Made by a program: the position numbers and the translations under genes. A stretch of 24,000 nucleotides of DNA, taken from the NCBI RefSeq assembly GCF_900100885.1, contig NZ_LT629692.1, positions 1,809,966-1,833,965 on the forward strand, given 5' to 3'. Every line of letters begins with the position of its first letter. Position 1 is the stretch's first letter. This document shows, piece after piece, positions 1,084 through 20,137 of this stretch. Below the pieces are notes generated by a model. It was not told the origin of the DNA. It worked only from the letters and a program-made list of their open reading frames with translations, and made no database searches. This stretch comes from Microbacterium pygmaeum (GTDB lineage Bacteria > Actinomycetota > Actinomycetes > Actinomycetales > Microbacteriaceae).

Positions 1084-3777
1084 TCACCGCAGGAACTGGT
1101 ACCGGATCTCCACCTGGATCTCGGTGAGCCCCGAGACGTCGAGTCCGGCGTTCTCGCGTGCGCCGACGACCGAGACGCTCCAGTCGCCGCCGATGCCGCG
1201 ACCCCAGAACGCGAGGGACAGCGGTGCAGTCAGCGGGACATCGACCGTTGCGTTCTCCTCCGGGTCCAGCGGCGTGAGCACCGCGCGTCGGGTGCTCGTT
1301 CGTGCCTGGAGCAGCTGGACGTCGATGGACCCGTCGGCGCGACGCTGCTCGTACCGACCGCCGTGTCGGATCTCGCAGGAGACCGCGCCCGTCGGATGCG
1401 CGGCGCCGACCAGGGCGAGCCGCACACTTCGGATCTTCGCGTCAGCCCGGCCCTCGGGAATCCTGGCTGCATCCACGAAGAAGCCGAACCGACCTGTCTC
1501 GCGCAGCTGCTGGAACTCGCGGTCGCCCGGGCGGAAGATCCTGCTCAGCACGTCCTGGTCATGGGCGCGCTCGAAGTAGGAGAGGTAGTCCTGCTGGATG
1601 TTCAGCGGCTTCAGCATCTTGCCCCACGAGGCGGTCAGGGCCTCGGCGAGCTGGTTGTCGGTGATGCGCTTCTCGTAGTAGTCGAGCCATGTCTCGGGGC
1701 TGAGCACCCCGGCATCCAGTGCGATGTTCTGCGCCTGCGGCAGCAGCGTGTAGATCTCCACCGACCGTGCAGCGCGGAACGCCATGCTCGTCAGAGACTC
1801 AGCGGCCGACTGGGCGATGTTGATCGCGAGCAGCCCGACTTCCTTGACCGATTCGGCATCGACATGGAGTCGCTTCTGGAGCGCCTCGGCCTGCGTCGCC
1901 TGCTCGGCGGCCCGCGCCGACCGGGACTGCGCGGCTTGCACGCGCTGCTGCGCGAGCTCGACGCGGTTGTTGGCGATGAGGAGCTGGTGAGCGAGCTCGG
2001 CGCCACGGCGCACGAGCGCGACCTGCTTGGCGTTGTCGGGCGTCGATGAGGCGGTGAGCTTTTCGATGACCCCGACGAAGTTGACGATCGTCTTGCCGGC
2101 CGCGATGACAGCATCCGCTTGCTTGCCGACCTTCTTGTACGCGTCCTCCACGGCCTTCGTGTCGGCCTTCGTGCCGGCCAGCAGCGCCTGAGCGATCGGC
2201 TGCGCCTGCGCCGTCACGGTGTCGACCAGGCTGACCATCGCGGGAACCAGGGCGACCAGGCTCGCGCCGGCGGTCGGAATGGCCGCGATCACGCCGACGA
2301 CGGCGCTCGCGACGCTGGCGACCGTGCCGATGATGTCACCGATGCCGAATGACGTGTCCTCCATTTCGGACATCGCAGCCTCGAGGTCGGTGGTCGCCTC
2401 GTCGAGTTGCTTCTGGATCAGGCTCGCTTCGTCGATGGCGATGTCCTTTTCGGATGCCGCAAGCCGCACGTCGTCTTCGAAATTGTCCCGCGCGGCCTCG
2501 GCGGCCTGCTTCTGCGATCCGACGATCCCCTCGAGCGCCGCGGTGGTGCCACTGGAGAAGACTGTGCTGAGGCCGCTGAGCAGGAAGTCGGTCGCGAGTG
2601 TGCTGAAGCCCTGGAACGCCGAGATGTAGGTGTCGAAGCTCGGCAGGATGTCGAGCTGGGGGGAGAGGCCGAGCACGTTCGTGCCGCCGCCCACCCAGAC
2701 CCGTTGGCCGGCGATTTCCTGCGCGACGCCGACGAGCTGAGCCTGCAGTTGCAGCCCGTAGCCGTTGTCGGGTTGGAGTTCGAGGCCACGGGCGATCTCG
2801 CTCGCCGCGCGCTCGCCGTCCTCGCCGGGATCTGACGCGCTCGGGTTGAACCGGTGGTAGTGGTACTCGCCCATGGCGATCCGGAACGGTGCCCAGTAGT
2901 TGGCCCACGACGGTCCGGTGGAATCCAGGAGAGGACGCATCCCCGCGATGAAGTCCTCTTCCGACACGTTGGTCCGCGTCACCGAGCCCGGTGTGCCCCA
3001 CTCGCCGGGTGCGCCGTCGTAGCCCGGAGCGGCCGTACCCGCGCTGTACGCGCCATCCGGACCGGCGACGCCCGCGGCGCCCCCGCCACCCGGAGTGCCT
3101 CCCGCCGCCGCGAGCACCGGTTCGGTGTCATCGGCGACGGAGGTGAACACGATCGCGCCGCCGCTGCCGCCGGACCCTCCGTTGCCTCCACTGCCGCCAT
3201 TGCCGCCGGGATAGCCTTCGACCGTCTCCTCCGGGACGGTGTACTCCTCGTACTCGAAGTCGTAGGGGTCGCCCGGGGTCAGGTCGCGCTGCTCGGTGTG
3301 CTCGGCCGTGTGCCAACCGGTCGCGCCTGCGGTGCCGTTACCGCCCCGTCCACCGCTGGTTCCGTTCCCGCCCGAGGTGTTGATCTTCGCGTTGATCGTC
3401 CGCCGCGCGTAGATCGTGACGGCGACGCCGTTCGCGCCCGACGCACCCGCACCGCCGTGCTCGCCGGGATTGCCGCCGGAGATCGGGCGACCGGCGGGGG
3501 TGTAGAGCTGCGTCGGCGGTACCGGAACGCCGTTCTGGCCATTGCCGCCGACGGCGGTGGCGGAGGCGCCGAACGCATCGATCGTGAAGCCCGCTCCGTC
3601 GAAGAGATCGGCGACGATGACGAGCGGCCGCGCGGTGATGCGCAGGTTCTTGCCGAGCCGAACCACCCTCCCGAGGAGGAACACCGGCCCGTCGCCGGCG
3701 TAGTCGTGGCAGATGTCTTCGATCTCCTGCGTGACGGTGATCTCATCGCGGATGAAGGGGGAGGTGTACACGGGCAT
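1084..3777 (-). CDS. Large hypothetical protein with an N-terminal Gly/Asn-rich repeat region, central coiled coil plus hydrophobic helical hairpin, and a C-terminal beta-rich domain (possible pore-forming or toxin-like protein)
   Basis: 897-aa ORF with very strong G/C third-position bias, and all overlapping ORFs look like antisense artefacts. It has GGNG-type repeats (GGNGGSGGNGGSGGSGG, SGGNGTSGGRGGNGTAGATG). A ~40-aa uncharged stretch, IIGTVASVASAVVGVIAAIPTAGASLVALVPAMVSLV, is flanked by long Ala/Gln/Glu-rich helices. No signal peptide is visible. Confidence 0.85.
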   Translation of the reverse strand: MPVYTSPFIRDEITVTQEIEDICHDYAGDGPVFLLGRVVRLGKNLRITARPLVIVADLFDGAGFTIDAFGASATAVGGNGQNGVPVPPTQLYTPAGRPISGGNPGEHGGAGASGANGVAVTIYARRTINAKINTSGGNGTSGGRGGNGTAGATGWHTAEHTEQRDLTPGDPYDFEYEEYTVPEETVEGYPGGNGGSGGNGGSGGSGGAIVFTSVADDTEPVLAAAGGTPGGGGAAGVAGPDGAYSAGTAAPGYDGAPGEWGTPGSVTRTNVSEEDFIAGMRPLLDSTGPSWANYWAPFRIAMGEYHYHRFNPSASDPGEDGERAASEIARGLELQPDNGYGLQLQAQLVGVAQEIAGQRVWVGGGTNVLGLSPQLDILPSFDTYISAFQGFSTLATDFLLSGLSTVFSSGTTAALEGIVGSQKQAAEAARDNFEDDVRLAASEKDIAIDEASLIQKQLDEATTDLEAAMSEMEDTSFGIGDIIGTVASVASAVVGVIAAIPTAGASLVALVPAMVSLVDTVTAQAQPIAQALLAGTKADTKAVEDAYKKVGKQADAVIAAGKTIVNFVGVIEKLTASSTPDNAKQVALVRRGAELAHQLLIANNRVELAQQRVQAAQSRSARAAEQATQAEALQKRLHVDAESVKEVGLLAINIAQSAAESLTSMAFRAARSVEIYTLLPQAQNIALDAGVLSPETWLDYYEKRITDNQLAEALTASWGKMLKPLNIQQDYLSYFERAHDQDVLSRIFRPGDREFQQLRETGRFGFFVDAARIPEGRADAKIRSVRLALVGAAHPTGAVSCEIRHGGRYEQRRADGSIDVQLLQARTSTRRAVLTPLDPEENATVDVPLTAPLSLAFWGRGIGGDWSVSVVGARENAGLDVSGLTEIQVEIRYQFLR

Positions 3778-3883
3778 GCGGCGTCCTTCTGCCAGGTCGG
3801 TGATTCGGTCACCGCGAAAGAGTCAGGCGCGGTCGTTCGTGATACGTCGAGGCGGATACGCGGAAGCTAAACTTGACGAGCCA

Positions 3884-3955
3884 GCCTCTGTAGCTCAATG
3901 GAAGAGCAGTTCCGTCCTAAGGAAACGGTTGGGGGTTCGAGTCCCTCCAGGGGCA
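3884..3955 (+). tRNA. tRNA-Arg (anticodon CCU), CCA not encoded
   Basis: Hand-folded cloverleaf. The acceptor is GCCTCTG/CAGGGGC (one G-U pair). The D arm is GCTC-AATGGAA-GAGC. The anticodon arm is GTTCC-GTCCTAA-GGAAA (T33, CCT at 34-36, A37, with a 27:43 G-A mismatch). The variable loop is CGGTT, the T arm is GGGGG-TTCGAGT-CCCTC, and the discriminator is A. The overall shape resembles E. coli argW as I remember it. The anticodon assignment is less certain than the tRNA call. Confidence 0.75.
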
Positions 3956-3970
3956 CAGTGCTTTTTTGCC

Positions 3971-4005
3971 TCTGACCAGGGATTTCTTCTGTGGTCAGAC
4001 CACAG
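3971..4005. repeat. Overlapping inverted repeats just 3' of the tRNA, including a perfect 17-bp palindrome
   Basis: CTGTGGTC-A-GACCACAG (3989-4005) is a perfect palindrome. TCTGACCA (3971-3978) is also complementary to TGGTCAGA (3992-3999), so two mutually exclusive hairpins are possible. The position fits a tRNA terminator or an att-arm protein-binding site. Confidence 0.6.
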
Positions 4006-4014
4006 AAAACGTCA

Positions 4015-4034
4015 TTTTGCCCGTTTTTTGCCCG
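4015..4034 (+). repeat. Direct repeat TTTTGCCCG x2 (period 11) in the tRNA-integrase spacer (candidate integrase arm-type or IHF-like sites)
   Basis: TTTTGCCCG occurs at 4015-4023 and 4026-4034, and a third partial copy TTTTGCC occurs at 3964-3970. Nearby are two copies of the palindromic octamer GGCGCGCC (4051-4058 and 4094-4101), flanked by CAAG and CTTG. The region is unusually AT-rich for this window. Confidence 0.45.
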
Positions 4035-4163
4035 CATTTCTCAAACTCTGGGCGCGCCGACAAGCCGCTTCAAGGCCCTTCGTTGGACGTCTTGGCGCGC
4101 CGAAATGAAGCGTTTCGCACGGGATCCTGCCCGCCGAAAAAGTGAGCAATCTGCTCTGCGCGG

Positions 4164-5303
4164 TTACTGCAGTCGCTGGGGTCGGGCGTACCGAGTCTGA
4201 GGACCCGAAGGCAGCGCCACCAACGGCATCTGCTCATTCAGTCGCGTCGCGACTTCGTCCAGATCGTCCTCGAAGAGGTCGGCGTACGTGTCGAGCGTCA
4301 TCGCGGCCGACGCGTGGCCGAGCATCCGCTGCACGGCCTTCACATTTGCTCCCGAGCTGATCGCGAGCGACGCGGCGGTGTGACGGAGGTCGTGCGGAGT
4401 GAGCCGCGGAATCGATGGGTCGATCTCCTGCGCCCGCCGGACCGCATTCGCGAACCATCCCTTGTCGCCCGAGTTGCGCATGTGATTGAGTCCGTCGCCG
4501 AACAGCAGACCCTCCGGGCCCTTGCCGGCGCACGCTTGCTCGATCATCGGGGCGAGGCGCGCGGGATACGGGACTGAACGGCGTTCCTGCGTCTTGGGTG
4601 TGCCGACGTGGATCTCGTAGGCGATCATGACCGCGTTCTCCTCGATGACGAAGCGCCGGCGCAACCGGTTCACGCTGCGAACCCGCAGCCCTGTCGCCTC
4701 ACCCCATCGCAGACCGCAGTAGGCGAGTGTGAGGACGAGCGTCGGATGCGCGGAGCACGCCGCCAGCGTCGCCACCTGGTCATGTGTGAGGTAGATGCGT
4801 CGCTTGCCCGGTCCGTGCCGCGGAAGGTTGCGCACGTTGCGGGCCGGATTGCTTGCGAGGCGCCGATCGTCGATCGCAACGTCGAGGATGCCGGCCAGAA
4901 TCCCCAGCGCGCGAAGGACCACCGTCCGCGACTTCGTCGTCGCGAGAGCTGACACCCAATCCTGGACTTCAGAGCGCCGGATCGACGAGATCTCACGGTC
5001 TGCCCAGACAGGAGCGACGTGATTGTTCCAGGCTCGCTCGAGTGTCATGTAGTACGAGGGCTTCGACATCGGCGGCTGCTTGGATCGCAGCCAGCTGTCC
5101 GCGAACATGCGAACAGGAACTCGCGACGATGAGGGGTCGATGTACTCGCCCTTCGACTTCGACACCGTGACCATCGACAGGTAGAGCTTCGCTTCGCGCA
5201 TCGTTGTGAAGCCGCGCTTCTCTGCCTCGGTGCGATCCGGCTTGCGATAGCGCACGCGGTAGCGGCGGCCCTTCGCCGTCTCGTACGGGGTGATGTAGCC
5301 CAT
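4164..5303 (-). CDS. int: Tyrosine recombinase (phage/ICE-type integrase)
   Basis: I trimmed the 481-aa track ORF to the ATG at 5303, which is preceded by GGAGG 6 nt upstream. The N-terminus MGYITPYETAKGRRYRVRYRKPDRTE is a typical arm-binding domain. Catalytic residues are visible in LRWGEATGLR (R), HDLRHTAAS (H-x-x-R) and LGHASAAMTLDTYADL (H...Y). The gene sits next to a tRNA 3' end. Confidence 0.92.
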   Translation of the reverse strand: MGYITPYETAKGRRYRVRYRKPDRTEAEKRGFTTMREAKLYLSMVTVSKSKGEYIDPSSSRVPVRMFADSWLRSKQPPMSKPSYYMTLERAWNNHVAPVWADREISSIRRSEVQDWVSALATTKSRTVVLRALGILAGILDVAIDDRRLASNPARNVRNLPRHGPGKRRIYLTHDQVATLAACSAHPTLVLTLAYCGLRWGEATGLRVRSVNRLRRRFVIEENAVMIAYEIHVGTPKTQERRSVPYPARLAPMIEQACAGKGPEGLLFGDGLNHMRNSGDKGWFANAVRRAQEIDPSIPRLTPHDLRHTAASLAISSGANVKAVQRMLGHASAAMTLDTYADLFEDDLDEVATRLNEQMPLVALPSGPQTRYARPQRLQ

Positions 5304-5345
5304 CTCGACCTCCGCTCGCGCCGGCTCGACAGTGGAGTATTGACA

Positions 5346-5360
5346 CAGTGTCGGACACTG
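5346..5360. promoter_or_regulatory. Perfect 15-bp palindrome upstream of the integrase start (candidate operator)
   Basis: CAGTGTC-G-GACACTG at 5346-5360, 43 bp upstream of the int ATG. A TTGACA hexamer abuts it on the + strand at 5340-5345, but I could find no matching -10. Confidence 0.35.
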
Positions 5361-5632
5361 GCCCGGGTCGTCAACGCGGAAGACGACAGATGTGGATAGA
5401 TGACGGAAGACGTCGTCAACTGGCGTTGGGGTGGAGGGATAGCGCCCTCCGACGCAGAGAGTCCGGCGATCGTTCGCGCCTCTCACTCCTTGCAGACTCC
5501 GTGCTGGCGCGCTCCGCTCAGCAGCCGTTCGATGACAAGCATTGCGCCGCGCCCGATCGCCGAGTGGGCCGAACCTCGGTGCGATAGCGCTTTCGCTGAA
5601 GCTCACCATCCGGGCAGCTGCTCATGGATCGG

Positions 5633-5659
5633 CGCTGACGTCGAGTCGCTGACGTCGAG
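5633..5659 (+). repeat. Tandem 13-bp direct repeat CGCTGACGTCGAG x2 immediately upstream of the MazG-like gene
   Basis: Identical copies at 5633-5645 and 5647-5659 separated by 1 nt. Each contains the GACGTC palindrome. The second copy ends 17 nt before the GTG start at 5677. Confidence 0.5.
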
Positions 5660-5676
5660 GCTGATAGCTTCGCATC

Positions 5677-5997
5677 GTGGTCACCGATCAGACGCGCCAA
5701 GCGATTCGAGCGTTCACGGACGAGCGAGAGTGGGACCAGTTCCACTCCGCGGCGAACCTCGCCAAGAGCATTTCGATCGAGGCTGGCGAACTGCTGGAGT
5801 GCTTCCAGTGGACCGACGACGCCGATCCCGAGCAAGTGGCTGAGGAGTTGGCCGACGTCCTGACATACTGTGTTCTGCTTGCGGACCGCCTCGGAGTGGA
5901 TCTGGACGCCATCGTGCTCGGCAAGCTTCGCGCATCGGCGGCGAAGTATCCCGTGGACAAGGCGCGCGGTAAGAGCGCAAAATATGACGCCCTTTAG
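5677..5997 (+). CDS. MazG-like nucleoside triphosphate pyrophosphohydrolase (small all-alpha NTP-PPase)
   Basis: 106-aa ORF with a GTG start directly after an in-frame TAG at 5665. The sequence REWDQFHSAANLAKSISIEAGELLECFQW...PEQVAEELADVLTYCVLLADRLGVDL shows the paired E-x-x-E / E-x-x-D metal-binding helices typical of the MazG/dCTPase-like family. Confidence 0.8.
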   Translation: MVTDQTRQAIRAFTDEREWDQFHSAANLAKSISIEAGELLECFQWTDDADPEQVAEELADVLTYCVLLADRLGVDLDAIVLGKLRASAAKYPVDKARGKSAKYDAL

Positions 5998-7711
5998 CAT
6001 CGAGAAGCTCGGTTTCGACGTAGCGGCGATCGCCGCACTAGCGCGGGGCGATAAGCGATACTCCAACTGGCCCGTAGTGTACGTGTTGGACGGCCGGGCA
6101 CAGACTTCGGTCTACGTCGGCGAGACCGTTAACACAGTCGCCCGCATGCGCCAGCACCTGGCTTCGCCGTCGAAGTCAGGGCTGAGCACGATCCGCGTCG
6201 TCGTCGATGACACCTTCAATAAATCCGCGTGCCTCGACCTCGAGTCGCACCTCATTCGCTGGCTCGCAGGCGACGGTCGATTCACGGTTCTTAATGGCAA
6301 CGAGGGCATCATCGACGCTGAGTACTACGACCGCGCCCTCTACAGAGAATCGTTCCGCGACATCTTCGAGCAACTGCGCGCGGAGGGTGTCTTCGGGCGC
6401 AGCATCCCCGAGATCGAGAACGGCGACCTGTTCAAGCTGTCGCCGTTCAAGGCGCTGACGCCCGATCAGGCGATCGCTGTCGAGGACATCCTCGAGGGCT
6501 TGTTCGTCGATCTTGCCGCCGGTACGGGGTCGACGGCCGTCATCCAAGGGCAGCCGGGTACAGGCAAGACCATCATCGGGATCTTTCTGCTGAAGCTTCT
6601 GGCGGACATTCGCGACTACGACGACTTGGACGATGTTCAGCCTGACTCGATCTTCTCGGAGCTATTCGTGCCCGAGCACCGAGCGCTGCTCGACGGCTTC
6701 CGCATGGGTCTGGTTGTGCCGCAACAATCGCTGCGCGAGTCGATCCGGCGAGTCTTCAAGAAGACACCAAAGTTGCATCCGGGGATGGTCCTATCGCCCT
6801 GGGACGTCGGGCTCGGCGGTGGAGACTATGACCTCCTCGTCGTTGATGAGACTCACCGGCTGAACCGACGTGCCAATCAGTCCTCCGGGATGCGCAACCT
6901 CGACTACCAGCGCATCAACGAGAAGCTCTTCGGCGCAGATGACTATGCGAAGACTCAGCTCGACTGGATCAAGGCCAAGAGCCGCCACCAGCTGTTGCTC
7001 GTCGACCGTGAGCAGAGTGTCCGCCCCGCCGACCTCCCGGACGCCATCCTCCGCGGAGAGCTGGAGGTCGCCCGTGCAGCGGGGCGTCGCTATCCACTAA
7101 CGACGCAGATGCGCGTCCGCGCCGGCACTGACTATGTCGACTTCATTCGTCGCCTCCTCCGTGGCGAAGCGGAAGAGGGGGCTCGCCCCGACTTCGGCGA
7201 GTACGATCTCCGCTTTTTCGACGACGTCGGCGCCATGCGCCGCGCGATCTTTGCTCAGGATGCGTCCCGCGGTCTCGCCAGACTTGTCGCGGGCTACGCG
7301 TGGGACTGGGTGAGCAAGAAAGATGTCGACGCATCCGACATCGTGCTAGACGATGTCTCGATGCGATGGAACAGCAAGGACACCGATTGGATCAACTCAC
7401 CGGGGTCGCTTCACGAAGTCGGCTCCATCCACACCGTGCAGGGCTACGACCTCAACTACGCGGGCGTGATCATTGGTCCCGACCTGCGCTACGACCCGAC
7501 CTCGGACCAGCTCTTCGTCGACCGTGATTCGTATCGTGACAAAAAGGGCAGCGAGAACAATCCGCGCTTGGGTATCACTTTCACCGACGAGGAACTACTG
7601 CAGTACATCCGCAACATCTATGGGGTGCTACTGACGCGCGGGATGCTCGGGACATTCGTCTACGTCTGCGACCCAGCGCTCCGCGAGTATGTGCGATCTC
7701 GGTTCGCCTGA
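5984..7711 (+). CDS. GIY-YIG nuclease-like domain fused to a DUF2075-type P-loop NTPase (SF1-helicase-like, Schlafen-C-terminal-like)
   Basis: I trimmed the track ORF (5870) to the ATG at 5984, which overlaps the MazG-like stop by 14 nt. The N-terminus VYVLDGRAQTSVYVGETVNTVARMRQH...LESHLIRWL...LNGNEG fits the GIY-(x10)-YIG, Arg, Glu, Asn order. Walker A is GQPGTGKT and Walker B is LLVVDETHRL. C-terminal SF1-like blocks are HTVQGYDLNYAGVIIG and VLLTRGMLGTFVYV. Confidence 0.8.
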   Translation: MTPFSIEKLGFDVAAIAALARGDKRYSNWPVVYVLDGRAQTSVYVGETVNTVARMRQHLASPSKSGLSTIRVVVDDTFNKSACLDLESHLIRWLAGDGRFTVLNGNEGIIDAEYYDRALYRESFRDIFEQLRAEGVFGRSIPEIENGDLFKLSPFKALTPDQAIAVEDILEGLFVDLAAGTGSTAVIQGQPGTGKTIIGIFLLKLLADIRDYDDLDDVQPDSIFSELFVPEHRALLDGFRMGLVVPQQSLRESIRRVFKKTPKLHPGMVLSPWDVGLGGGDYDLLVVDETHRLNRRANQSSGMRNLDYQRINEKLFGADDYAKTQLDWIKAKSRHQLLLVDREQSVRPADLPDAILRGELEVARAAGRRYPLTTQMRVRAGTDYVDFIRRLLRGEAEEGARPDFGEYDLRFFDDVGAMRRAIFAQDASRGLARLVAGYAWDWVSKKDVDASDIVLDDVSMRWNSKDTDWINSPGSLHEVGSIHTVQGYDLNYAGVIIGPDLRYDPTSDQLFVDRDSYRDKKGSENNPRLGITFTDEELLQYIRNIYGVLLTRGMLGTFVYVCDPALREYVRSRFA

Positions 7712-7742
7712 GGCTGGAACCAACGCGCGTGTGCTCGGTCGG

Positions 7743-9314
7743 TCAGCCGACCACGACGCGTTGCACATCTTCGAGCGTCACCTCGCGTCCGACGCTCAGA
7801 AGCGCGAGGAGCATTTCGGCATCAACCCGTCCGTCCTGCGCATGCTGAATCAATGCAATCCATGCTGTGATGCCGACAGCGGACCCTGGGACGCCCGTTT
7901 CATCAACGATCTTTCGTAGACGGGGATTGATGCTTGCGCCGAAGCTGGAGGAGATAAAGACCCACGCTTTAAGCTTCGGCGACTTCTGAGCGTAGGCGGC
8001 CACATACTCCTTCATCGCTCTCTCGTCGCTTGCAGGGAGGGTGTATCCGTTCCCGTGCGCCTTCGTGTCGACGATGATTCGCCAAGAGTTGTTGTTGTCG
8101 ACTACCACGTCGGGTTCCCTCCCAGCGCCTCCAACGTGCCGGGCATCAAGTTCGAACACGCGCTTGAAGACATCTGTCGTCGCAAGCTCGAAGTCCCGCG
8201 CGCGCTCGCGACTCGAGCGAGCCATCTCCGCGTAGCCGAGAAGGAACTGATCCAGCGTGCGAGATCGGTCCGGCATCACGCGGCCCAGTGCCGCGCTGAC
8301 GGACGCCGGACTAAAGCCGGTGGATGCCGACACGCGCTCCAAGAATTCGGCAGGAGGGACCGCGACAATCATCTCGGTGCGGGCAATGCCAAGGACAACC
8401 GTCTGAACACGTAGGTCGATCGCTTCTTCCCGAGAAAGCGCTCGCGACCCCGACAGATTTCTGGTGTCCTTCGATCTTCCGGGGGGCAAGCCGTAGCGAC
8501 GCTGGAATTTCTCTTCATTCTGCGGGTCAGGGATGAGGGCCGCCCCGCCGTGTTGCTCAATCAATTCCTGAGCGAGCGTCTCGCGTCCAGGAGTGATCCA
8601 GATTTGGTCGTCCTGCCGCTCGACGAGGTTGGTATGCTGCATCCAGTTCATCGCCGTGTTCGCAATGTCGGCGAGTGCTTCGCGCAGCCGGTCAGGTCTT
8701 CCTCGATTGGAGCAGAAGCGCGTTGAGAAGTCCGGCTCAAGACTCGAATCGCCGTCTTCGCGATATTGCAGGATGGCCTCGACGACCTTGTCCCGACCTG
8801 CAACGGTGTGCCGGTCACCGAGGGTGATCACTCGCAGAGCAATCTCTTCCTGGGCTAGGTAGCCAACGCGATCGTCAAGGAGTAGTCGAAGTAGCAGAAC
8901 CATCGGCCTTAGCTGGAACCGTCGGTCGACATCGACATTTCGGCCGACGGAGTAGGGCGACGGGAACTGATACTTCAGGACCTGATTTCCGAGAATCGGC
9001 GCCGGCGGCTCTCCGTCGGCGAGCGCTTCACCAGCCAGCGTCAAATACATCCGCTCGTCCGCTTCGCGCTCGAATGCAAGTCCCAAGCTGCGCAGAAGGC
9101 TCGCGTGCGTGCGGCCGCCCGACCCTCCAGCGTCTCGCCTGTCACCCTGGCGCTTGATGGACTCACGTTCAAGGACCTCTTCGAATGCGATGTGCAACTC
9201 TCTTGATCCCGACCATGGCCGACCGTAAGCCACCTCTCGAAGCGCAGCGACTGACTGCGGCACGCGGTAAAGCTTGCGTTGTGGTCGCGTGAAGAACCAA
9301 TACGGCAGAGTCAC
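7743..9314 (-). CDS. Type IIS-like restriction endonuclease with a FokI-type cleavage domain
   Basis: 523-aa ORF with a GTG start. The C-terminal block FELATTDVFKRVFELDARHVGGAGREPDVVVDNNNSWRIIVDTKAHGNGYTLPASDERAMKEYV aligns residue by residue with the FokI catalytic domain as I recall it (..GGSRKPDGAIY..GVIVDTKAYSGGYNLPIGQADEMQRYV). This includes the D...D-x-K catalytic residues. The N-terminal ~350 aa (LPYWFFTRPQRKL...) is presumably the recognition module. The gene lies 93 bp downstream of an m5C methyltransferase on the same strand. Confidence 0.85.
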   Translation of the reverse strand: MTLPYWFFTRPQRKLYRVPQSVAALREVAYGRPWSGSRELHIAFEEVLERESIKRQGDRRDAGGSGGRTHASLLRSLGLAFEREADERMYLTLAGEALADGEPPAPILGNQVLKYQFPSPYSVGRNVDVDRRFQLRPMVLLLRLLLDDRVGYLAQEEIALRVITLGDRHTVAGRDKVVEAILQYREDGDSSLEPDFSTRFCSNRGRPDRLREALADIANTAMNWMQHTNLVERQDDQIWITPGRETLAQELIEQHGGAALIPDPQNEEKFQRRYGLPPGRSKDTRNLSGSRALSREEAIDLRVQTVVLGIARTEMIVAVPPAEFLERVSASTGFSPASVSAALGRVMPDRSRTLDQFLLGYAEMARSSRERARDFELATTDVFKRVFELDARHVGGAGREPDVVVDNNNSWRIIVDTKAHGNGYTLPASDERAMKEYVAAYAQKSPKLKAWVFISSSFGASINPRLRKIVDETGVPGSAVGITAWIALIQHAQDGRVDAEMLLALLSVGREVTLEDVQRVVVG

Positions 9315-9407
9315 CGGGCCAGACTATGGCCTGCCTGTCGACGGCTACCCTCATATGGCGCGACACGCAGAAGCCGATGTTTCAGAGGTGACGGGGAGCC
9401 CGTCCGG

Positions 9408-10565
9408 CTAGCTCGCCTCCGCAACCATCTCTCGGAGGTCGGCGACGCGTCGGGGAGGCACTCGGTGATGAAGGTTCGGCTCGAGGCCGACGTAATCGAT
9501 GCCGGCGAATGATTTTAGAACTGCCTCGAAGACGATCCGAGCCCCTTCCACCGGCACCGCCATACCGATCTGCTTCCGGACGCTCTCCTTGCCTCCCTTG
9601 AACTCGAAACGATCCGGGAAGGTCTGGATGCGGGCCCGCTCACGGTTGGTCAGGGCGCGGTCCTCGGACCAGTGGTAGACGTGGGTCCCACCACCGCCGG
9701 AGCCGGTGATCGTGTAACACGGCTTATCTGCTTCCAGTCGCTTGTAAATCTGGCTGATCCGCGCGCCCGCAACGTTGAGTCGAAGGTCTGCAGGGAGATC
9801 CGCGGTGAACGCGTTTTGGCCCGGTTTGATGTGCTGCAGGCGGCGCACGACGTCCTCACTCTGCTTGGTGAGCTCTTGGTTGGCCGCCCAACCCGGGATC
9901 TCGCTCAGGGCAAGCCGAACGGAGTTGTCACGGTCAGCAAACATCGCTGGCGATGGCACCCTGAACTCCACGTCCAGGTCATCTCGGATTCCCACGATGA
10001 GGATCCGGTGCCTGCGCTGAGGAATTCCGTACTCTTCAAACTTGTAGAGGTGAGGATATAGGCGGTAGCCGGTCCAGGGAGCTGGACGGCCCTCGCTGTC
10101 AGTTTCGCCTCCCGCGTGCTGGAGCCTATCGAGGATCATCTCGAATGCGGTGCCATCGTTGGAGTTCCGAAGTCCTCCCACGTTTTCGGCTACGAACCAC
10201 TTTGGCGAGTAGGTGTCAATGACGCGAGCGCCGTACTCGTAGAGGGGTCCGAACTCCCCAGCGATCCCCTTACGCTCGCCGACGTTTGAGAAGTCGTTGC
10301 AGGGGAATCCGAAAGCGAGGCCATCGATCGGCGACAGCTGCCCGGCGATGTCGAGCTTCCTGACATCCTCATGAATCACCCGAGCGCCGGGGAAGTTGTG
10401 CTTATAGGTATCGCACGTGTCGCGGTCGTAGTCGGTGGCCCATGCATGCGCGATGCGGTACCCCTCCACGGAACCGGCGGCCTGTCGTGCGCCCTCGGCG
10501 ATGCCGCCGGGCCCACTGAACAGTTCGCCCAGTCTGAATACTTCAGTGCGATCGCTGACTGACAC
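9408..10565 (-). CDS. DNA (cytosine-5)-methyltransferase
   Basis: 385-aa ORF with a GTG start preceded by GAGAGG. The m5C MTase motifs appear in order: I FSGPGG, IV GFPCNDFS, VI AENVGG, VIII QRRHRILIVG, IX NRERARIQTFPD, X GMAVPV. Confidence 0.93.
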   Translation of the reverse strand: MSVSDRTEVFRLGELFSGPGGIAEGARQAAGSVEGYRIAHAWATDYDRDTCDTYKHNFPGARVIHEDVRKLDIAGQLSPIDGLAFGFPCNDFSNVGERKGIAGEFGPLYEYGARVIDTYSPKWFVAENVGGLRNSNDGTAFEMILDRLQHAGGETDSEGRPAPWTGYRLYPHLYKFEEYGIPQRRHRILIVGIRDDLDVEFRVPSPAMFADRDNSVRLALSEIPGWAANQELTKQSEDVVRRLQHIKPGQNAFTADLPADLRLNVAGARISQIYKRLEADKPCYTITGSGGGGTHVYHWSEDRALTNRERARIQTFPDRFEFKGGKESVRKQIGMAVPVEGARIVFEAVLKSFAGIDYVGLEPNLHHRVPPRRVADLREMVAEAS

Positions 10566-10693
10566 TCACGGACCTCTCGTTGGATACTTGGGATCAGGCT
10601 AGGCAAGCTTCTCCCAAGGGTCCGACACCGTGGCGGCGTGTTGCTGAACTTTCCCGCTAGTAGTCGGATCTATATTCGAATGGTTCGATCGAC

Positions 10694-11155
10694 ATGAGCT
10701 CAGCGCAACCCGCTTCATGGGCCAGTAGCGAGACGGCACGCCGGACCATGCTTGCCAATCGCTCGAAGAACACACAACCCGAGTTGGCCGTCCGGAAAAT
10801 CCTTCATGCCGGCGGTCTTCGGTACCGCGTGAATATGCGCCCGATACCGCTTCTGAGGCGCACCGCCGACGTCGTGTTCACCCGAGCACGAGTCGCTGTC
10901 TTCATCGATGGATGCTTCTGGCACAGCTGCCCTGAGCACTCCTCCCGGCCGAAGTCGAACAGCGACTACTGGGGGCCCAAGCTTCGTGGCAACGTGGAGC
11001 GAGACCGACAGACAGATCGCGCGCTCGAGTCAGCGGGGTGGCTTGTGTTGCGCTTCTGGGAGCACGAATCCGAGGTCGAGGTCGCCGAGGCGATCGCGCT
11101 GGCTGTGCGGGCCCAACACTCCTCGTCGTTGGATGCCTCGGGTGTCAAAGATTGA
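10694..11155 (+). CDS. vsr: Very short patch repair endonuclease (T/G mismatch-specific)
   Basis: 153-aa ORF. The sequence NRSKNTQPELAVRKILHAGGLRYRVN...PDVVF...VAVFIDGCFWHSCPEH...NSDYWGPKLRGNVERDRQTDRALESAGWLVLRFWEHE is the canonical Vsr motif set. The gene is divergent from the m5C MTase. Confidence 0.92.
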   Translation: MSSAQPASWASSETARRTMLANRSKNTQPELAVRKILHAGGLRYRVNMRPIPLLRRTADVVFTRARVAVFIDGCFWHSCPEHSSRPKSNSDYWGPKLRGNVERDRQTDRALESAGWLVLRFWEHESEVEVAEAIALAVRAQHSSSLDASGVKD

Positions 11156-11903
11156 GATTTTCGCGGAAGCTTTCCTCGACAATCTGAAAGAGCTCTGCCT
11201 CCGGAAGCGTGCCCAGCGCGCGGCGACCGGCGAGGTAGTCGAGATCCTCGAGGAACGAACGCACCCCCACTCGGTCGTAGGGAGTTTCCTGGTTCACCAG
11301 GTAGTTGGTGAGCACGCTGAGGAGCGCTCGGGCGAGAGCCGGGACCGTCGCGAGGCTGGGTCGGCCGAGCACCTGAACTGACAGATCGCTGTTCGAGAAG
11401 AACGCCTGCAGGGCGGGATTCAGGTCGCTCGGATCGGCAAATCGGCGAACATACGAACCGCTCCACCAGAGCCGGGCAATGGCGTGATCCCGCTCTCGCC
11501 GCCTGTCCGTGCTCGCAAACACGTGATTGATGACGTGATTGCCGAGCGCGTCATCGCTAGCCGGCCAACGATCCCGCGTGTAGTTGCGAAAGTAGCCGAG
11601 TGCCAGCGTCACCCAGAGGCGCTCGTCGACCGCGTCAGCCGGGGTGAGGTTGGGCAGAACGCGAAGAATAAGTCGAGCGTTCGCCGCGTCCAAGTCACCT
11701 TGCCGGGTGTCTCCGTCGGACAGCTGGAGCCCGCAGTTACCGTCAACCTCGTATTCCGACTCAATGAATCGCAGGTCGAGGGTCTTGACTAGTGCGTCCA
11801 AATCGTTGTTCCAAACTTCAGCCGCCTGGGACCCGGCCGCCATCACTCGCAGCGTGTCAACGGAATCGGCGGTGAGAATGCGCAACTGTTGCATCTCAGA
11901 CAT
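11145..11903 (-). CDS. Hypothetical protein, fourth and last gene of the GHKL-ATPase operon
   Basis: 252-aa ORF. Its ATG overlaps the upstream stop by 8 nt (ATGTCTGA). Codon bias is good and the protein is mostly helical and Trp/Arg-rich (ERLWVTLALGYFRNYTRDRW, IARLWWSGSYVRRF). I recognise no catalytic motif. Confidence 0.75.
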   Translation of the reverse strand: MSEMQQLRILTADSVDTLRVMAAGSQAAEVWNNDLDALVKTLDLRFIESEYEVDGNCGLQLSDGDTRQGDLDAANARLILRVLPNLTPADAVDERLWVTLALGYFRNYTRDRWPASDDALGNHVINHVFASTDRRRERDHAIARLWWSGSYVRRFADPSDLNPALQAFFSNSDLSVQVLGRPSLATVPALARALLSVLTNYLVNQETPYDRVGVRSFLEDLDYLAGRRALGTLPEAELFQIVEESFRENLNL

Positions 11904-12738
11904 CTGCGACCTCGACCTTCTTGATTCCTTTCGCGCTCACGAGAAGCTGTGCGGAGATCTCCTGATACTCAGGGTCGTCCGGATCGAGCGCGCGCCCAAG
12001 GTCTTCCAGGCGACTCATCAAAGTACGGCCCCACGGCAACTCCGTGTTCTCGCCGTCCTCCTCACGTGCGAGGTAGTTCAGCGCGCCGGCGATGCAGTCC
12101 TTATAGACGCTCATGAACAGGTACGGCCGCGTGGACCGATCGGCGCGCATGTGCCCGATGGCATCGCGGAGACTCTCGCCGGCGATGATGATGATGCGCG
12201 GGCCGTCGTACTGGAAGCGATAGATGTCCGTGTCCGACTCTTCGGTCGAGTACTTGATCGTCACCAGGTCGCGGTCGAGTGTTCGGGAGAACTCCAGGTC
12301 GACGGTGACCGATTCGCCGACGCCGAGGATGTCGCCTTCACGAACACCGAACACAGATGTCCCGAACTCTTCATTGATTCCATCGGGCCGATATGTCTGG
12401 TTCGAGGAGCTGGCAATGATGAGCGGCGTGAGCGTGGTGCTGCCGTACAGCTGGCCATCGTCGAACACGAGCTGACCCTTCCACCCGTCCAGGTCGACAT
12501 ACTCTCTGAAGAGAGTCGATCGGCACTGAACGTCCATCACAATGCGCGCATTGCCGTCGAGGAAGTATTCGTCCATCCACGCCACCGACTGAGTGATGTC
12601 GTATGTGACGACGAGCTGCTGCGATGTGTCTCCGCCCATCTCAGCTTCAATTGCGGCGTGAAATTTGGCATCGCTTCCGAAGTCGTCGCTGAACGAGGAG
12701 AGGACTGGGTACGGGTATGCCTTGGCTCGATAGCTCAC
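11896..12738 (-). CDS. Hypothetical protein, third gene of the GHKL-ATPase operon
   Basis: 280-aa ORF with a GTG start in a GTGA overlap with the ATPase stop. The N-terminus is SYRAKAYPYPVLSSFSDDF. It has an acidic, beta-rich middle and a helical C-terminus. I recognise no motif. Confidence 0.75.
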   Translation of the reverse strand: MSYRAKAYPYPVLSSFSDDFGSDAKFHAAIEAEMGGDTSQQLVVTYDITQSVAWMDEYFLDGNARIVMDVQCRSTLFREYVDLDGWKGQLVFDDGQLYGSTTLTPLIIASSSNQTYRPDGINEEFGTSVFGVREGDILGVGESVTVDLEFSRTLDRDLVTIKYSTEESDTDIYRFQYDGPRIIIIAGESLRDAIGHMRADRSTRPYLFMSVYKDCIAGALNYLAREEDGENTELPWGRTLMSRLEDLGRALDPDDPEYQEISAQLLVSAKGIKKVEVADV

Positions 12739-14660
12739 GGTTCGAGTCGCCCTTCAATCGCATAGTCGAGGTCTGCTGGGTGGAAGACGAGGCGGAGATG
12801 CTTGCGCGCGGTGGCGCTTAGCTCTGTGAATTCGAGTGAAGTGCGCCACGCTGAGCCCGCGGCCACTTCCTCCTCGGTCCGGAACTCCAGACGCTCAGTC
12901 TCCGAGTCGCCCGAGCGGAGCAGGACGAGAGTCTTTCGCGTCCCGTCCACCGGCGTGAAGGCGACATCGGCTACACCTGATCCTGGTGCCGTCCGAACGA
13001 CGCGAAGGTTTCGAACGGGGAGGCCGGTCCGAAGCGCGCTCTTCGCGGAACCCGAGCCATCGCCGGGGAAGGTTCCACCCTTCGACTTGTGCTTTCCTGG
13101 GCCGCCGTTGGATCCGCGGCCGGACGTGTCCGCATCGCCGGTGAGTTCGGTCTGCCTGTTCTCTCGATGTGAGCGAGCCTTCTTGAAGGCGATCCGCAGG
13201 GTTCGGTTCGGCTCGCCCTTCTCGTTGTCAACGCCAGCGCCTAGATCGCCCCGGAACCAATCGTCCAAGTCGTCGACGGACACCTCTTCTTCAATCTGGA
13301 TAGAAGCATGCTCTCGCAGGAGGCTCCGCACGCTCGATTGGAACTTGTAGTAGGCGGCTTCCGCGGACTTTCTCTCCGTCATGTCGCTGATTCGATCAAA
13401 CGCGAACTCCGTGTGCTCTGGGTTCTCGAGCTTTCGCAGAAGCTCCGAGCCCTGGTCTCCTGACACGCAGACAAACAGGTCGAACGGCTTCAGACCCGGA
13501 AAGCGCTGCAGCTTCTCTGCTGCTCGTGTGATCAGCATCCCGTTGCCGCGGGCGACGCCCACGTGACGCCCGACAACTCCATCAAGGCGGAGATACCAGT
13601 TGATCGTTCCGAAGTCCTCCAGTTGGAGTGTTCCGGAAAGATCCTTCTTGCGCACGGTTCGCGCGGATTCGAGTCGCTCGACGACCTTGTCTGTCGGCTT
13701 GAGTATGTTGATCAAGTCCGTTTCGACCACATCGTCGAATGCCTGGGCAACGCTGTCGGCGTCGATGCGTTCGTGCTCGCCCAGATGGACCACCAACTTA
13801 TTCGTAAGCACGGCGAAGTAGAAGTTTGCGACGACTGCGAGCTTGACTTCCGCCCACAGCAACTCTTCTTCCTCTACCCCATACGGCTCTGGAATGTACA
13901 CCGACGTGCCAACGCTCAACGCATCCCGGTCGAGCTCTGGTCGCGCCTGAATCGCCCATCGTGGCACCTCGCCGTCTGTGAGGGGGAGGCACTTCGTCCG
14001 AATGCCGAAGTACCCGGTGGCGACGCACCACTCGGGGGCACCGGTCACTTCGGTAAGGGGGACAGATTGAAGGATGCTCTTCCCTTGGAACCTCGTCTCG
14101 AGCGAACCCTCGTGCTCGATGCGGGAAAGGTAGAAAAGGGTGCGGAGCTCTGACATGGCGAATGGCGCCCGCGACCCATGCCCGAAGGAACCTAGGGCGG
14201 AGCTACTCTCCTTGAAGGTCATGCCAGCCCCCTTCACCAGGGCAAGCCATGGCCCTGATTGCGGATTCTCCGGCGGATCAAAGGTGGGCCCGGTCAGCCC
14301 TCTCGTGTTGTAGTCGTGGACCCCTAGGAACGTGACGTGGCCGTCAGCGACCTGATCGATCGCTCGCTGGTAGAAGCTCTTGCCGGCCTGAGTGTGTTCC
14401 AGCTTGTGCGCTGCCTTGAAGTAGCGAGCGAGCTCATCGAATCCCGTGTCGTCGAGGTCGGACGTCGTGTCGAGCGTGAATCGCACAATGACTGGGTCAC
14501 TGGTCTTGTCCTGCGCGTCGAGCGAGTTCTGGATCATCTCGCGTACGAGTGCTTGAAGGCGCTCGCTCTTGAACATGTCGATTGCCGACACGTTGAATCC
14601 CTCTCGAGTCCCGTCGTTTAGGAACGGAAACTTCCAACCCACATCACTTGTCATGCTCAC
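12735..14660 (-). CDS. GHKL (Bergerat-fold, HATPase_c / MORC-, sacsin- or Hsp90-like) ATPase with a long uncharacterised C-terminal region
   Basis: 641-aa ORF. The N-box is LVREMIQNSLDA, the G1 box is GVHDYNTRGLTG, and the G2 box is LGSFGHGSRAPF, all within the first ~170 aa and in the canonical order. Next come ~330 aa I cannot assign and a low-complexity linker (TGDADTSGRGSNGGPGKHKSKGGTFPGDGSGSAKS). The protein ends in a ~100-aa beta-rich C-terminal domain. Confidence 0.85.
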   Translation of the reverse strand: MSMTSDVGWKFPFLNDGTREGFNVSAIDMFKSERLQALVREMIQNSLDAQDKTSDPVIVRFTLDTTSDLDDTGFDELARYFKAAHKLEHTQAGKSFYQRAIDQVADGHVTFLGVHDYNTRGLTGPTFDPPENPQSGPWLALVKGAGMTFKESSSALGSFGHGSRAPFAMSELRTLFYLSRIEHEGSLETRFQGKSILQSVPLTEVTGAPEWCVATGYFGIRTKCLPLTDGEVPRWAIQARPELDRDALSVGTSVYIPEPYGVEEEELLWAEVKLAVVANFYFAVLTNKLVVHLGEHERIDADSVAQAFDDVVETDLINILKPTDKVVERLESARTVRKKDLSGTLQLEDFGTINWYLRLDGVVGRHVGVARGNGMLITRAAEKLQRFPGLKPFDLFVCVSGDQGSELLRKLENPEHTEFAFDRISDMTERKSAEAAYYKFQSSVRSLLREHASIQIEEEVSVDDLDDWFRGDLGAGVDNEKGEPNRTLRIAFKKARSHRENRQTELTGDADTSGRGSNGGPGKHKSKGGTFPGDGSGSAKSALRTGLPVRNLRVVRTAPGSGVADVAFTPVDGTRKTLVLLRSGDSETERLEFRTEEEVAAGSAWRTSLEFTELSATARKHLRLVFHPADLDYAIEGRLEP

Positions 14661-17116: not shown

Positions 17117-17854
17117 CTAGAAGGCTGAACCAAAGCCCGGTAGCACATCCTCAAGCTCCCGCCTTATCGCGTATGGCGCGTGATTACTCCTCAGTCTTCG
17201 CAGTTCGTCGGCACGCATACGAGGGTCAACTTCGATGAACTGGTTGAGGGTCACGAAATACGGCGCGACTAGCCGCGCCGTGAATCCGCGGGTGTAGGTG
17301 GCGCCCATCACTCCTGCTTCCGACCGTGCCGCGCGGACGACCGCCGTGACTTGCGAATGCCCCACCCGCGTGCCACTGACGAGGTTTCGAAGTGCCCCCA
17401 AGTCGATCGGAGGCTGGTCGGATTCACGAAGCTCCGTGGCACTAGAGCACACAAGTGCGAAGTGATGCAGACGAGATACGTTTCCGTTGCTCGTCACCAG
17501 CATTTCGTCCGGAACTCGGTAGGCACGTCCGTCGAATGTTCGCCCGGCTTGCCACAGGCGTAAGCGTGGCGGCTCGCGGTCTTGTAGACGCGCAGGCGAC
17601 AGCATTGACGAGAATCGCACCAGCGGTTCCGCGCCCTGCGCTAACAACGCTGGCAGGGAAGGACGCACACTGTTTCCGATCCCCCACAGGAACACACCGT
17701 TGCTGGAGTTCAGTTCCTCCGATTTTCTTTGCAGGATGTCATCGATGCGCTCTCCCGACTCCGTGCCGTATCGCGTCCAGCAAAATGCCGAGCCCAGCTC
17801 AACACATGCGGTAGCGTCGCCTTGAGTGCGGTCCGGGGCGTCCGTCAATGGCAT
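17117..17854 (-). CDS. Hypothetical protein, paralog A of an unknown family (see 19589-20137)
   Basis: 245-aa ORF with an ATG start. It shares ordered blocks with the 182-aa protein at 19589-20137: GERIDDILQRKSEE, VFLWGIGNS, HFALVCSS, LVAPYFVTL. It carries an extra ~45-aa C-terminal extension. Confidence 0.75.
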   Translation of the reverse strand: MPLTDAPDRTQGDATACVELGSAFCWTRYGTESGERIDDILQRKSEELNSSNGVFLWGIGNSVRPSLPALLAQGAEPLVRFSSMLSPARLQDREPPRLRLWQAGRTFDGRAYRVPDEMLVTSNGNVSRLHHFALVCSSATELRESDQPPIDLGALRNLVSGTRVGHSQVTAVVRAARSEAGVMGATYTRGFTARLVAPYFVTLNQFIEVDPRMRADELRRLRSNHAPYAIRRELEDVLPGFGSAF

Positions 17855-17896
17855 GCTGCAACCGTACCGGGCGAATCAGTAGGAACGGGGGCCACC

Positions 17897-19613: not shown

Positions 19614-20137
19614 GGCGCCATTAGTGGCGCCGCTACTGAGATCTTGACCGTTGCGGCGTCCTCCGTGGGCGCGTCAACAACATCGAGACAGGCTTTGTCC
19701 AGCCGGCCGCGAATATAGTCCTTCCCGACTTTGCCTCGCGAGTCGCCTACTCCGACTCGAGTCGCACTCAGGTCTAGCAGGGTGTCAACGTCATCCAGGC
19801 TCGAGAGAACGAGCGCGTATTTCGAACCGAGGACATTTACCTCTGCGGGAATCTCCCGCCACGTTTCGCGGTCCGTCGAGTACTCGCGAGAACGCACTTG
19901 TGCCGCATTGTGATTCGAGTTGATTTCCTGCATGACGAGCGTTATCGGCCCTTCAACTCTTTCCGCAAATTCGCGCACGCGGGTCGGAAAGCAAGAGTTC
20001 CCTCCATATCCCCACATCGCGAATCCAGCTTCCTGCACCTCCCGACGCTTTCTCTCCAAAATGTCTTCGAGCGTCTCGCCGGCATGGACCCCGACTTTCA
20101 TGTAAAGAATGTGGTCTCCCGGTGCGATTTCCATCAC
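19589..20137 (-). CDS. Hypothetical protein, paralog B of the unknown family and third gene of the kinase/transferase operon
   Basis: 182-aa ORF. Its start (GTG 20137 or ATG 20134) overlaps the upstream TGA. Blocks GETLEDILERKRRE, FAMWGYGGNS, KYALVLSS and LMAPYAVFL match the 245-aa protein at 17117-17854. Confidence 0.8.
   Translation of the reverse strand: MMEIAPGDHILYMKVGVHAGETLEDILERKRREVQEAGFAMWGYGGNSCFPTRVREFAERVEGPITLVMQEINSNHNAAQVRSREYSTDRETWREIPAEVNVLGSKYALVLSSLDDVDTLLDLSATRVGVGDSRGKVGKDYIRGRLDKACLDVVDAPTEDAATVKISVAAPLMAPYAVFLRD

Follow-up and report, generated by a model that had tools for sequence, protein, structure and literature searches.

A MazG-like pyrophosphohydrolase gene overlapping a GIY-YIG nuclease-helicase gene: a candidate two-gene defence cassette in Microbacterium pygmaeum

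The gene pair

The DNA analysed here, referred to throughout as the window, is a stretch of 24,000 nucleotides (nt) from Microbacterium pygmaeum (contig NZ_LT629692.1, positions 1,809,966 to 1,833,965). Between its positions 5677 and 7711 lie two overlapping genes, the first for a small MazG-like nucleoside triphosphate (NTP) pyrophosphohydrolase and the second for a larger protein that joins a GIY-YIG nuclease domain to a helicase of the DUF2075 type. We describe this pair, its relatives in other genomes, and the reasons for regarding it as a candidate system of defence against phages and other mobile DNA. The pair and its parts are as follows (aa, amino acids).

5677-5997, plus strand: MazG-like pyrophosphohydrolase gene; GTG start, 106 aa (list of open reading frames [ORFs] and raw sequence)
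5984-7711, plus strand: gene for the GIY-YIG nuclease and DUF2075/Schlafen (SLFN) group 3 helicase of superfamily 1B (SF1B); ATG at 5984, stop at 7711, 575 aa (Pfam, AlphaFold2 model, fold matches)
5984-5997, plus strand: 14-nt gene overlap between the MazG stop and the nuclease-helicase ATG, AAATATGACGCCCTTTAG (raw sequence)
6062-6313, plus strand: GIY-YIG catalytic domain, approximately residues 27-110, with Y33, Y44-V45-G46-E47, R54, H58, E87 and N104
6533-7672, plus strand: DUF2075 helicase core, residues 184-563, with Walker A G189-T196, Walker B D288-E289, Q344, R377, T484-Q486-G487 and R552

Given that the two genes are co-oriented and share 14 nt, they are probably co-transcribed and translationally coupled. 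In many homologues, a Shine-Dalgarno-like GGAG is found 9-12 nt 5' of the nuclease-helicase ATG. A scan of positions 5200-7900 for promoters and terminators yielded nothing convincing. The original prediction, made by a model from the sequence of the window, had described a 106-aa MazG-like gene overlapping a 575-aa gene by 14 nt, and its coordinates and reading frames agree with the raw sequence.

Both proteins look catalytically competent

The small protein belongs to the MazG-like family PF12643, which it matches at 1.8e-20 with 73.4 bits against a Pfam cut-off of 27. Among Protein Data Bank (PDB) sequences, its closest solved relatives are the DCTPP1/RS21-C6 pyrophosphatases of deoxycytidine triphosphate (dCTP), namely 2a3q and 6sqw, which align at 1e-17 over residues 7-104. 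When 106 MazG sequences were compared, distant ones included, R17, W19, H23, E35, E38, E41, W45, E57, D60, Y64 and K83 were kept in at least 97% of partners. The E-x-x-E...E-x-x-D metal site is therefore represented in full (E35, E38, E41, E57, D60), and the conserved aromatic and histidine residues align with those of DCTPP1. By these features, the protein is a DCTPP1-like, all-alpha pyrophosphohydrolase of deoxynucleoside triphosphates (dNTPs).

The large protein carries the Walker A motif GQPGTGKT and the Walker B motif VVDETHRL, and over residues 184-563 it matches nearly the whole of PF09848 (profile positions 3-354 of 354; 2.4e-61, 208 bits against a cut-off of 24). This family is the former DUF2075, and its present Pfam name is "Schlafen group 3 DNA/RNA helicase domain." Across 69 family members at 31-52% identity, the helicase columns G189, G192, G194, K195, D288, E289, Q344, R377, G487 and R552 are invariant or nearly so, with no exception at all for the Walker residues G189, G192, G194, K195, D288 and E289. 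An AlphaFold2 model of the full-length protein (predicted local distance difference test [pLDDT] 80.7) matches the folds of Dna2, Upf1, RecD2, RecD, coronavirus nsp13 and human SLFN14. A phmmer search of PDB sequences with the whole 575-aa protein returned only Old Yellow Enzyme, a match that we rejected as spurious.

The N-terminal domain was recognized from several directions. In the window protein itself, the Pfam GIY-YIG family (PF01541) stays below threshold, at 19.6 versus 22.6 bits over residues 31-94. The same model matches 65 of the 69 diverse family members, with a best value of 2e-10. When an N-terminal profile was compared with PDB sequences, the ten best matches were all GIY-YIG nucleases (T4 endonuclease II, I-TevI, UvrC, UPF0213). 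Furthermore, when an AlphaFold2 model of residues 1-140 (pLDDT 79.7) was compared by Foldseek, the seven top matches were all GIY-YIG domains of UvrC, with template-modelling scores of 0.49-0.61 on the target and weak E-values of 0.035-0.15. The GIY...YIG pair itself corresponds to V31-V32-Y33 and Y44-V45-G46, which fall on modelled strands 31-36 and 42-48, while the arginine that follows YIG, the catalytic glutamate and the asparagine correspond to R54, E87 and N104. None of the 69 proteins departs from Y44, G46, E47, R54, H58, E87 or N104, and at least 90% of them keep Y33. The family matches, the profile comparison and the fold bear out what had been predicted for the N terminus, and the Pfam name of PF09848, together with SLFN14 among the fold matches, does the same for the prediction that the NTPase is of the eukaryotic Schlafen type.

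The large protein consists of an intact GIY-YIG nuclease, a helical linker and an intact SF1B-type DUF2075 helicase. Since the catalytic residues of the MazG protein and of the nuclease-helicase are kept, both proteins look catalytically competent.

The two genes are conserved as neighbours

For a census of the pair in actinobacteria, we ran a diverse alignment against a set of genomes in which each GTDB species was represented once. The scan produced 80 loci, 52-69% identical, in Micrococcales, Propionibacteriales, Kineococcus and Rhodococcus. When these were searched by tblastn with the window MazG as query, 75 of the 80 proved to have a MazG homologue immediately upstream and in the same orientation. 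Of the 75, 60 have the same 14-nt overlap at an ATG as the window, and the other paired loci have overlaps of 1, 4 or 20 nt or start codons that were not placed. One Demequina locus (L080) has its MazG gene, 40% identical, directly downstream. Four loci (L051, L063, L066 and L075) have MazG on neither side, although one of them ends at a contig edge and one is N-terminally truncated. We searched these four for a replacement nucleotide hydrolase and found none; their upstream genes encode a GNAT acetyltransferase, a helicase-sigma fusion, and ORFs that have no Pfam match.

The family extends well past the actinobacteria. A HMMER search of the whole library returned 438 representative clusters (50% identity) at E<1e-30, mostly full length from about residue 25 onwards, which span Actinomycetota, Bacillota and Bacteroidota and include members from plasmids and from contigs classified as viral. 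On megaplasmids of Bacillus mycoides and B. thuringiensis, and on a plasmid of L. plantarum (Lactiplantibacillus), the DUF2075 gene, at about 30% identity, is immediately preceded by a gene annotated as "nucleotide pyrophosphohydrolase." Among loci from IMG/VR at 23-39% identity, a hidden Markov model built from the partners detected MazG beside the DUF2075 gene in 9 of 13, upstream in seven and downstream in two. Both gene orders therefore occur, with MazG downstream in L098, L100 and the Demequina locus. The reverse comparison gave the same picture, since all three MazG homologues (3/3) taken from a MazG search were followed by a DUF2075 gene. In addition, over 73 loci the pairwise identities of one protein correlate with those of the other (r=0.51, Mantel p=0.001). 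Chance adjacency can be dismissed, given that 75 of 80 loci keep the pairing and that it recurs in other phyla and in either gene order.

Distant relatives indicate which part of the large protein the small one accompanies. The anti-phage activity of Nhi (S. epidermidis SERP2475; Bari et al. 2022) and of Nhi-like proteins (Millman et al. 2022) has been established by experiment (bioRxiv 10.1101/776245; 10.1101/2022.05.11.491447). In three of the IMG/VR loci (L101:4275-6164, L105:4293-6185 and L106:4206-6080), a MazG gene directly precedes a DUF2075 protein of Nhi-type architecture, in which a PD-(D/E)XK-like domain (..RIDCLL..IELKQWE..) forms the N terminus. Because MazG pairs with these proteins as well, its link is to the helicase core and not to GIY-YIG. 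There is also a sub-clade of GIY-YIG-DUF2075 proteins, 730-776 aa long, with a C-terminal Peptidase_S24 domain of the LexA/UmuD-like type (P0259, P0264, P0268, P0271, P0274, P0310, P0320, P0341 and P0364). Three IMG/VR copies (L095-L097:4920-7163) have 747 aa, which by size alone is the length of the S24-fused form, and MazG lies directly upstream of them. A metagenome scan with the S24-type member P0264 found nothing. We also looked for fusions of MazG to DUF2075 among the longer family members and found none; the extra domains were Peptidase_S24 or HSDR_N.

So close a link between a small gene and a large effector gene could have another meaning, namely that of a regulator and its toxin in a system of the abortive-infection type. 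The nuclease-helicase would then be toxic to its own cell, and MazG would restrain it or set the threshold at which it acts, for instance by breaking down a nucleotide that activates it, until infection lifted the restraint. The conserved overlap with the effector gene fits such an arrangement, as does the fact that MazG follows the helicase core whatever the nuclease, and expression of Nhi is reported to be costly to cells. However, the gene order is variable (MazG is downstream in L080, L098 and L100), some family members exist without MazG, and the strict retention of its catalytic residues speaks for real catalysis on a substrate rather than mere binding, even if the version with a nucleotide signal still fits. 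We consider this explanation improbable.

The pair is the minimal mobile unit

The pair lies in an island that carries further genes of restriction and defence, listed here in the order of the window.

3884-3956, plus strand: tRNA-Arg(CCT), likely integration site of the island (ARAGORN; homology block 3865-7700)
4164-5609, minus strand: tyrosine integrase, 481-aa ORF (Pfam Phage_integrase)
7743-9314, minus strand: restriction enzyme of 523 aa with a FokI-cleavage domain and an AlwI-like N terminus (Pfam, PADLOC, NCBIfam)
9408-10565, minus strand: Dcm 5-methylcytosine (m5C) methyltransferase (Pfam, PADLOC, NCBIfam)
10694-11155, plus strand: Vsr very-short-patch endonuclease (Pfam, PADLOC, NCBIfam)
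11145-14660, minus strand: PDC-M33 C, B and A, three consecutive ORFs of 252, 280 and 641 aa (PADLOC 5.9e-29, 3.1e-26 and 1.4e-74)

The order is thus tRNA-Arg, integrase, pair, restriction-modification genes with Vsr, and the candidate system PDC-M33, whose first ORF carries DUF6339. Positions 7743-11155 make up a type IIS-like restriction-modification system with its repair partner Vsr. The gene for the FokI/AlwI-like enzyme converges on the DUF2075 gene, and their stops are 31 nt apart. The integrase probably starts near position 5300, about 100 codons later than in the listed ORF, given that the integrases of relatives (L089, L090, L108) are shorter, at 376-432 aa versus 481 aa. Within the window, we found no attR or second copy of the tRNA-Arg 3' end, which leaves the far border of the island undefined.

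Comparison with related genomes by blastn separates the pair from what surrounds it. The block 3865-7700, which contains the tRNA, the integrase and the pair, is common to L089, L090 and L108 at 84-89% identity and stops 10-20 nt before the DUF2075 stop codon. In two other relatives, L109 and L001, homology is confined to 5660-7702, the two genes and nothing else. Past the pair the cargo is swapped: other restriction genes replace the 7743-11155 system in L089, L108 and L109. The cargo of L108 comprises Dcm and NaeI, and that of L089 a DUF3427 restriction enzyme with a NUDIX gene. From the homology limited to two genes in L109 and L001, and from these swaps of cargo, we conclude that, at the level of DNA comparison, the pair is the minimal mobile unit. 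Adjacency to an integrase is confined to a few close relatives and is not a family-wide trait. Across the 80 loci, the 737 flanking ORFs fall into 632 clusters, and the flanks are accordingly not syntenic. With flanks that are not conserved and homology blocks that end at the cassette borders, inherited synteny alone is ruled out as the reason for the pairing.

These observations bear on the possibility that the pair serves housekeeping and not immunity. MazG would clear damaged or modified dCTP (5-OH-dCTP, 5-methyl-dCTP), and the GIY-YIG helicase would process DNA that contains such bases or lesions. A sanitising function is known for DCTPP1 and for mycobacterial MazG (PDB entry names; PMC3855555); GIY-YIG is the fold of the 3' incision by UvrC; the LexA/UmuD-like S24 sub-clade points to SOS control; and the family occurs in very many species of Microbacteriaceae. 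A housekeeping role agrees poorly, however, with a pair that has no fixed chromosomal position, as the 632 clusters among 737 flanking ORFs attest, that rides on integrase islands and megaplasmids, that has neighbours dominated by restriction and defence genes, and whose homology stops right at the borders of the cassette, past which the cargo is exchanged. We regard it as unlikely, although it is the strongest of the alternatives that we considered.

Among the neighbours, the commonest family, found in 9 of the 80 loci, is a type IV methyl-directed restriction enzyme of about 1000 aa that combines PLD, DEAD-helicase and DUF3427 domains. In all, a DUF3427 enzyme adjoins the pair in L003, L008, L009, L011, L048, L058, L062, L065, L081, L089, L093 and L109, often with a NUDIX gene, and NUDIX and SRA_ScoMcrA genes lie near the pair in L001 and L089. 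Other close neighbours are GmrSD, NERD, Vsr, T5orf172/SNIPE, PD-Lambda-1 and Zac, as well as components of DISARM, BREX and Dpd. It has been noted before that DUF3427 enzymes such as McaZI adjoin DUF2075 NTPases (Lutz et al. 2019, PMC6765204).

These associations would be expected if the pair were an accessory of type IV restriction, acting with neighbouring DUF3427, SRA or GmrSD enzymes on modified DNA and modified dNTPs. The DUF3427 enzyme is the most frequent neighbour (the nine loci of the census, plus L089, L093 and L109), its adjacency to DUF2075 has the precedent just cited, and the NUDIX and SRA_ScoMcrA genes of L001 and L089 point the same way. Yet about 70 of the 80 loci, the window among them, have no DUF3427 gene beside the pair, and in the window the pair adjoins a restriction-modification system of the classical m5C type, accompanied by Vsr. 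Of the three alternatives, this one seems to us the least probable.

Several arrangements around the pair are recorded here for their own sake. On the Bacillus plasmids, a gene for an HNH endonuclease lies just upstream of the MazG-DUF2075 pair (L083:3399-4349, L084:2993-3916). In L. plantarum (L086:339-3636), the pair is preceded by genes for a NUDIX-type dNTP pyrophosphohydrolase and for a DEAD/DEAH helicase of 960 aa. Both arrangements may be larger, lineage-specific modules. In the window, a Gly-rich protein of 897 aa that has no Pfam match is encoded just outside the island (1084-3777, minus strand). The region of this gene is 72% identical in DNA to the matching flank of L089, a related genome in which the island thus occupies the corresponding chromosomal site. 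Further along are an IrrE/M78 peptidase-like ORF with weak matches to capP and RmrA (17729-18928, plus strand) and a BpsA_C/methyltransferase-like ORF with a weak match to mad2 (20134-20961, minus strand). The GC content drops to 0.56-0.58 around 14-15.5 kb and 19.5-21 kb of the window.

A candidate defence cassette and how it might work

Taken together, our results suggest, with a probability of roughly 0.6, that the pair is a self-contained, horizontally mobile two-gene cassette whose function, by analogy, is defence against phages or mobile DNA of the kind provided by Nhi-like nuclease-helicases. We infer the defence role, and likewise the role in nucleotide depletion or sanitation, from genomic context and homology. 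Nhi-like defence receives more weight from us than the sanitation, toxin-regulator or type IV-accessory explanations. It is also in line with the original prediction, which had proposed a plausible two-gene defence module, not known as a named system, and which is supported on each of the three points where it was exposed: the genes are conserved neighbours in 75 of 80 actinobacterial loci, on plasmids of Bacillota and in 9 of 13 IMG/VR loci; the N-terminal domain has the GIY-YIG fold; and PADLOC v2 gives no match for MazG and only partial, weak ones for the large protein.

An argument can be made against a dedicated defence function on several grounds. The classic housekeeping sanitisers include enzymes of the DCTPP1 and MazG types, and a GIY-YIG domain joined to a helicase, like the fusions to S24, would fit a role in repair equally well. 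The family is very common in Microbacterium and its relatives, and some immediate neighbours of the pair are ordinary metabolic genes. The partnership, too, has its gaps. Five of the 80 loci have no MazG upstream, members from B. cereus (L085), L. amylolyticus (L087) and E. raffinosus (L088) are without the partner, and so are more distant plasmid copies at 24-26% identity. Finally, the PADLOC model for Nhi (PDLC02372) matches the large protein at E=9e-4 and 16 bits, over residues 158-198 only. Because this match is weak and partial, the homology to validated Nhi, as far as sequence comparison reaches, is limited to the helicase core.

If the cassette does act in defence, a working sequence of events can be proposed by analogy with Nhi. 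The helicase would load on foreign or replicating DNA and use ATP for translocation or unwinding, and the GIY-YIG domain would nick or cleave the DNA that the helicase has engaged. The MazG partner would hydrolyse dCTP or, in the manner of DCTPP1, preferentially dCTP with a modification at position 5. This hydrolysis could take two forms, both speculative. It might deny the phage the modified dCTP from which restriction-resistant DNA is made; alternatively, it might keep modified deoxycytidine released from degraded DNA out of the DNA of the host. In the S24-fused relatives, the LexA-like domain suggests that RecA or single-stranded DNA signals may control activity. A logic based on modified cytosine is attractive because neighbours related to cytosine methylation recur, among them Dcm and Vsr in the window, the Dcm and NaeI genes of L108 and, at other loci, type IV enzymes of the DUF3427 and SRA kinds.

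A broader proposal follows, which we put forward tentatively and with less conviction than the defence role itself. In this proposal, a DCTPP1-like pyrophosphatase of dCTP, possibly modified dCTP, would be the dedicated partner of DUF2075 nuclease-helicases irrespective of their nuclease and with or without a LexA-like sensor. The two would form a widespread immune module that has no name as yet, one that combines the destruction of foreign DNA with the policing of the modified-cytosine pool and works alongside m5C restriction-modification and type IV restriction.

Confirmation would have several implications. The catalogue of defence systems would gain a common two-gene system, represented by 438 clusters from Actinomycetota, Bacillota and Bacteroidota, and part of the "Nhi-like" class would prove to have an obligate nucleotide-pool partner. 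There would be a bacterial setting in which homologues of human DCTPP1 and of a Schlafen-type helicase domain act together, and a testable link between nucleotide sanitation and the restriction of phages with modified cytosine. Annotation would benefit as well, as pipelines now label the genes "nucleotide pyrophosphohydrolase" and "DUF2075 / DNA/RNA helicase domain-containing protein."

Comparison with known systems

Catalogues and literature yielded only fragments of the cassette. The MazG protein had no match of any kind in PADLOC v2. For the large protein there were partial matches, to PDC-S14 on residues 27-108 (2e-8, 31.6 bits), to PDC-S41 on residues 371-562 (1e-7, 28.6 bits), and to AbiO over about 40 residues of the helicase core (2.6e-5); those of distant paired relatives were equally partial. 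Within the collection of papers searched, none joins DUF2075 with MazG or "nucleotide pyrophosphohydrolase," or MazG with Nhi, and PDC-S14 turned up there only in lists. DefensePredictor lists MazG as a predicted, unvalidated defence domain (PMC13092281).

Two candidate systems overlap with the large protein one domain at a time. The profiles of PDC-S14 match the GIY-YIG region and PDC-S41 matches the C-terminal helicase part, but both are single-gene candidates that have no MazG component. With the group III Schlafens (SLFN5/11/13/14), the large protein shares the C-terminal helicase/NTPase of PF09848, and SLFN14 (9jr9) is among its structural matches. Unlike them, it has no Pfam match to the Schlafen/AlbA_2 RNase core, and its nuclease is instead a GIY-YIG domain of the DNA type.

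The small protein has its counterparts in enzymes of the nucleotide pool. It shares with DCTPP1/RS21-C6 and with PF12643 homology over its full length, the metal-binding glutamates and aspartate, the aligned aromatic and histidine residues, and a C-terminal K-Y tail. It differs from DCTPP1 in being a minimal version of 106 aa, encoded in an operon where it overlaps the nuclease-helicase gene, and its role is presumably related to conflict and not to housekeeping. Some defence systems deplete nucleotides by means of a dCTP deaminase or a dGTPase. Like these, the cassette places a dNTP-pool enzyme in defence islands; unlike them, it uses an all-alpha NTP pyrophosphatase that is obligately coupled to a nuclease-helicase, and depletion is putative here.

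The closest comparison is with Nhi and Nhi-like proteins, which likewise consist of an N-terminal nuclease fused to a DUF2075 (PF09848) SF1 helicase and are found on mobile elements or in defence islands. The likeness is greatest for the distant MazG-paired relatives that have a PD-(D/E)XK-like N terminus, whose architecture is that of Nhi. The window protein, in contrast, has a GIY-YIG nuclease where Nhi has a PD-(D/E)XK (HsdR-like) one, and it does not match the Nhi profile over its full length. Furthermore, Nhi and Nhi-like systems are both described as single genes, whereas the family of the window has a conserved DCTPP1-like partner. The cassette is probably a previously undescribed, two-part relative of the Nhi nuclease-helicases, set apart by another nuclease and by a conserved second component.

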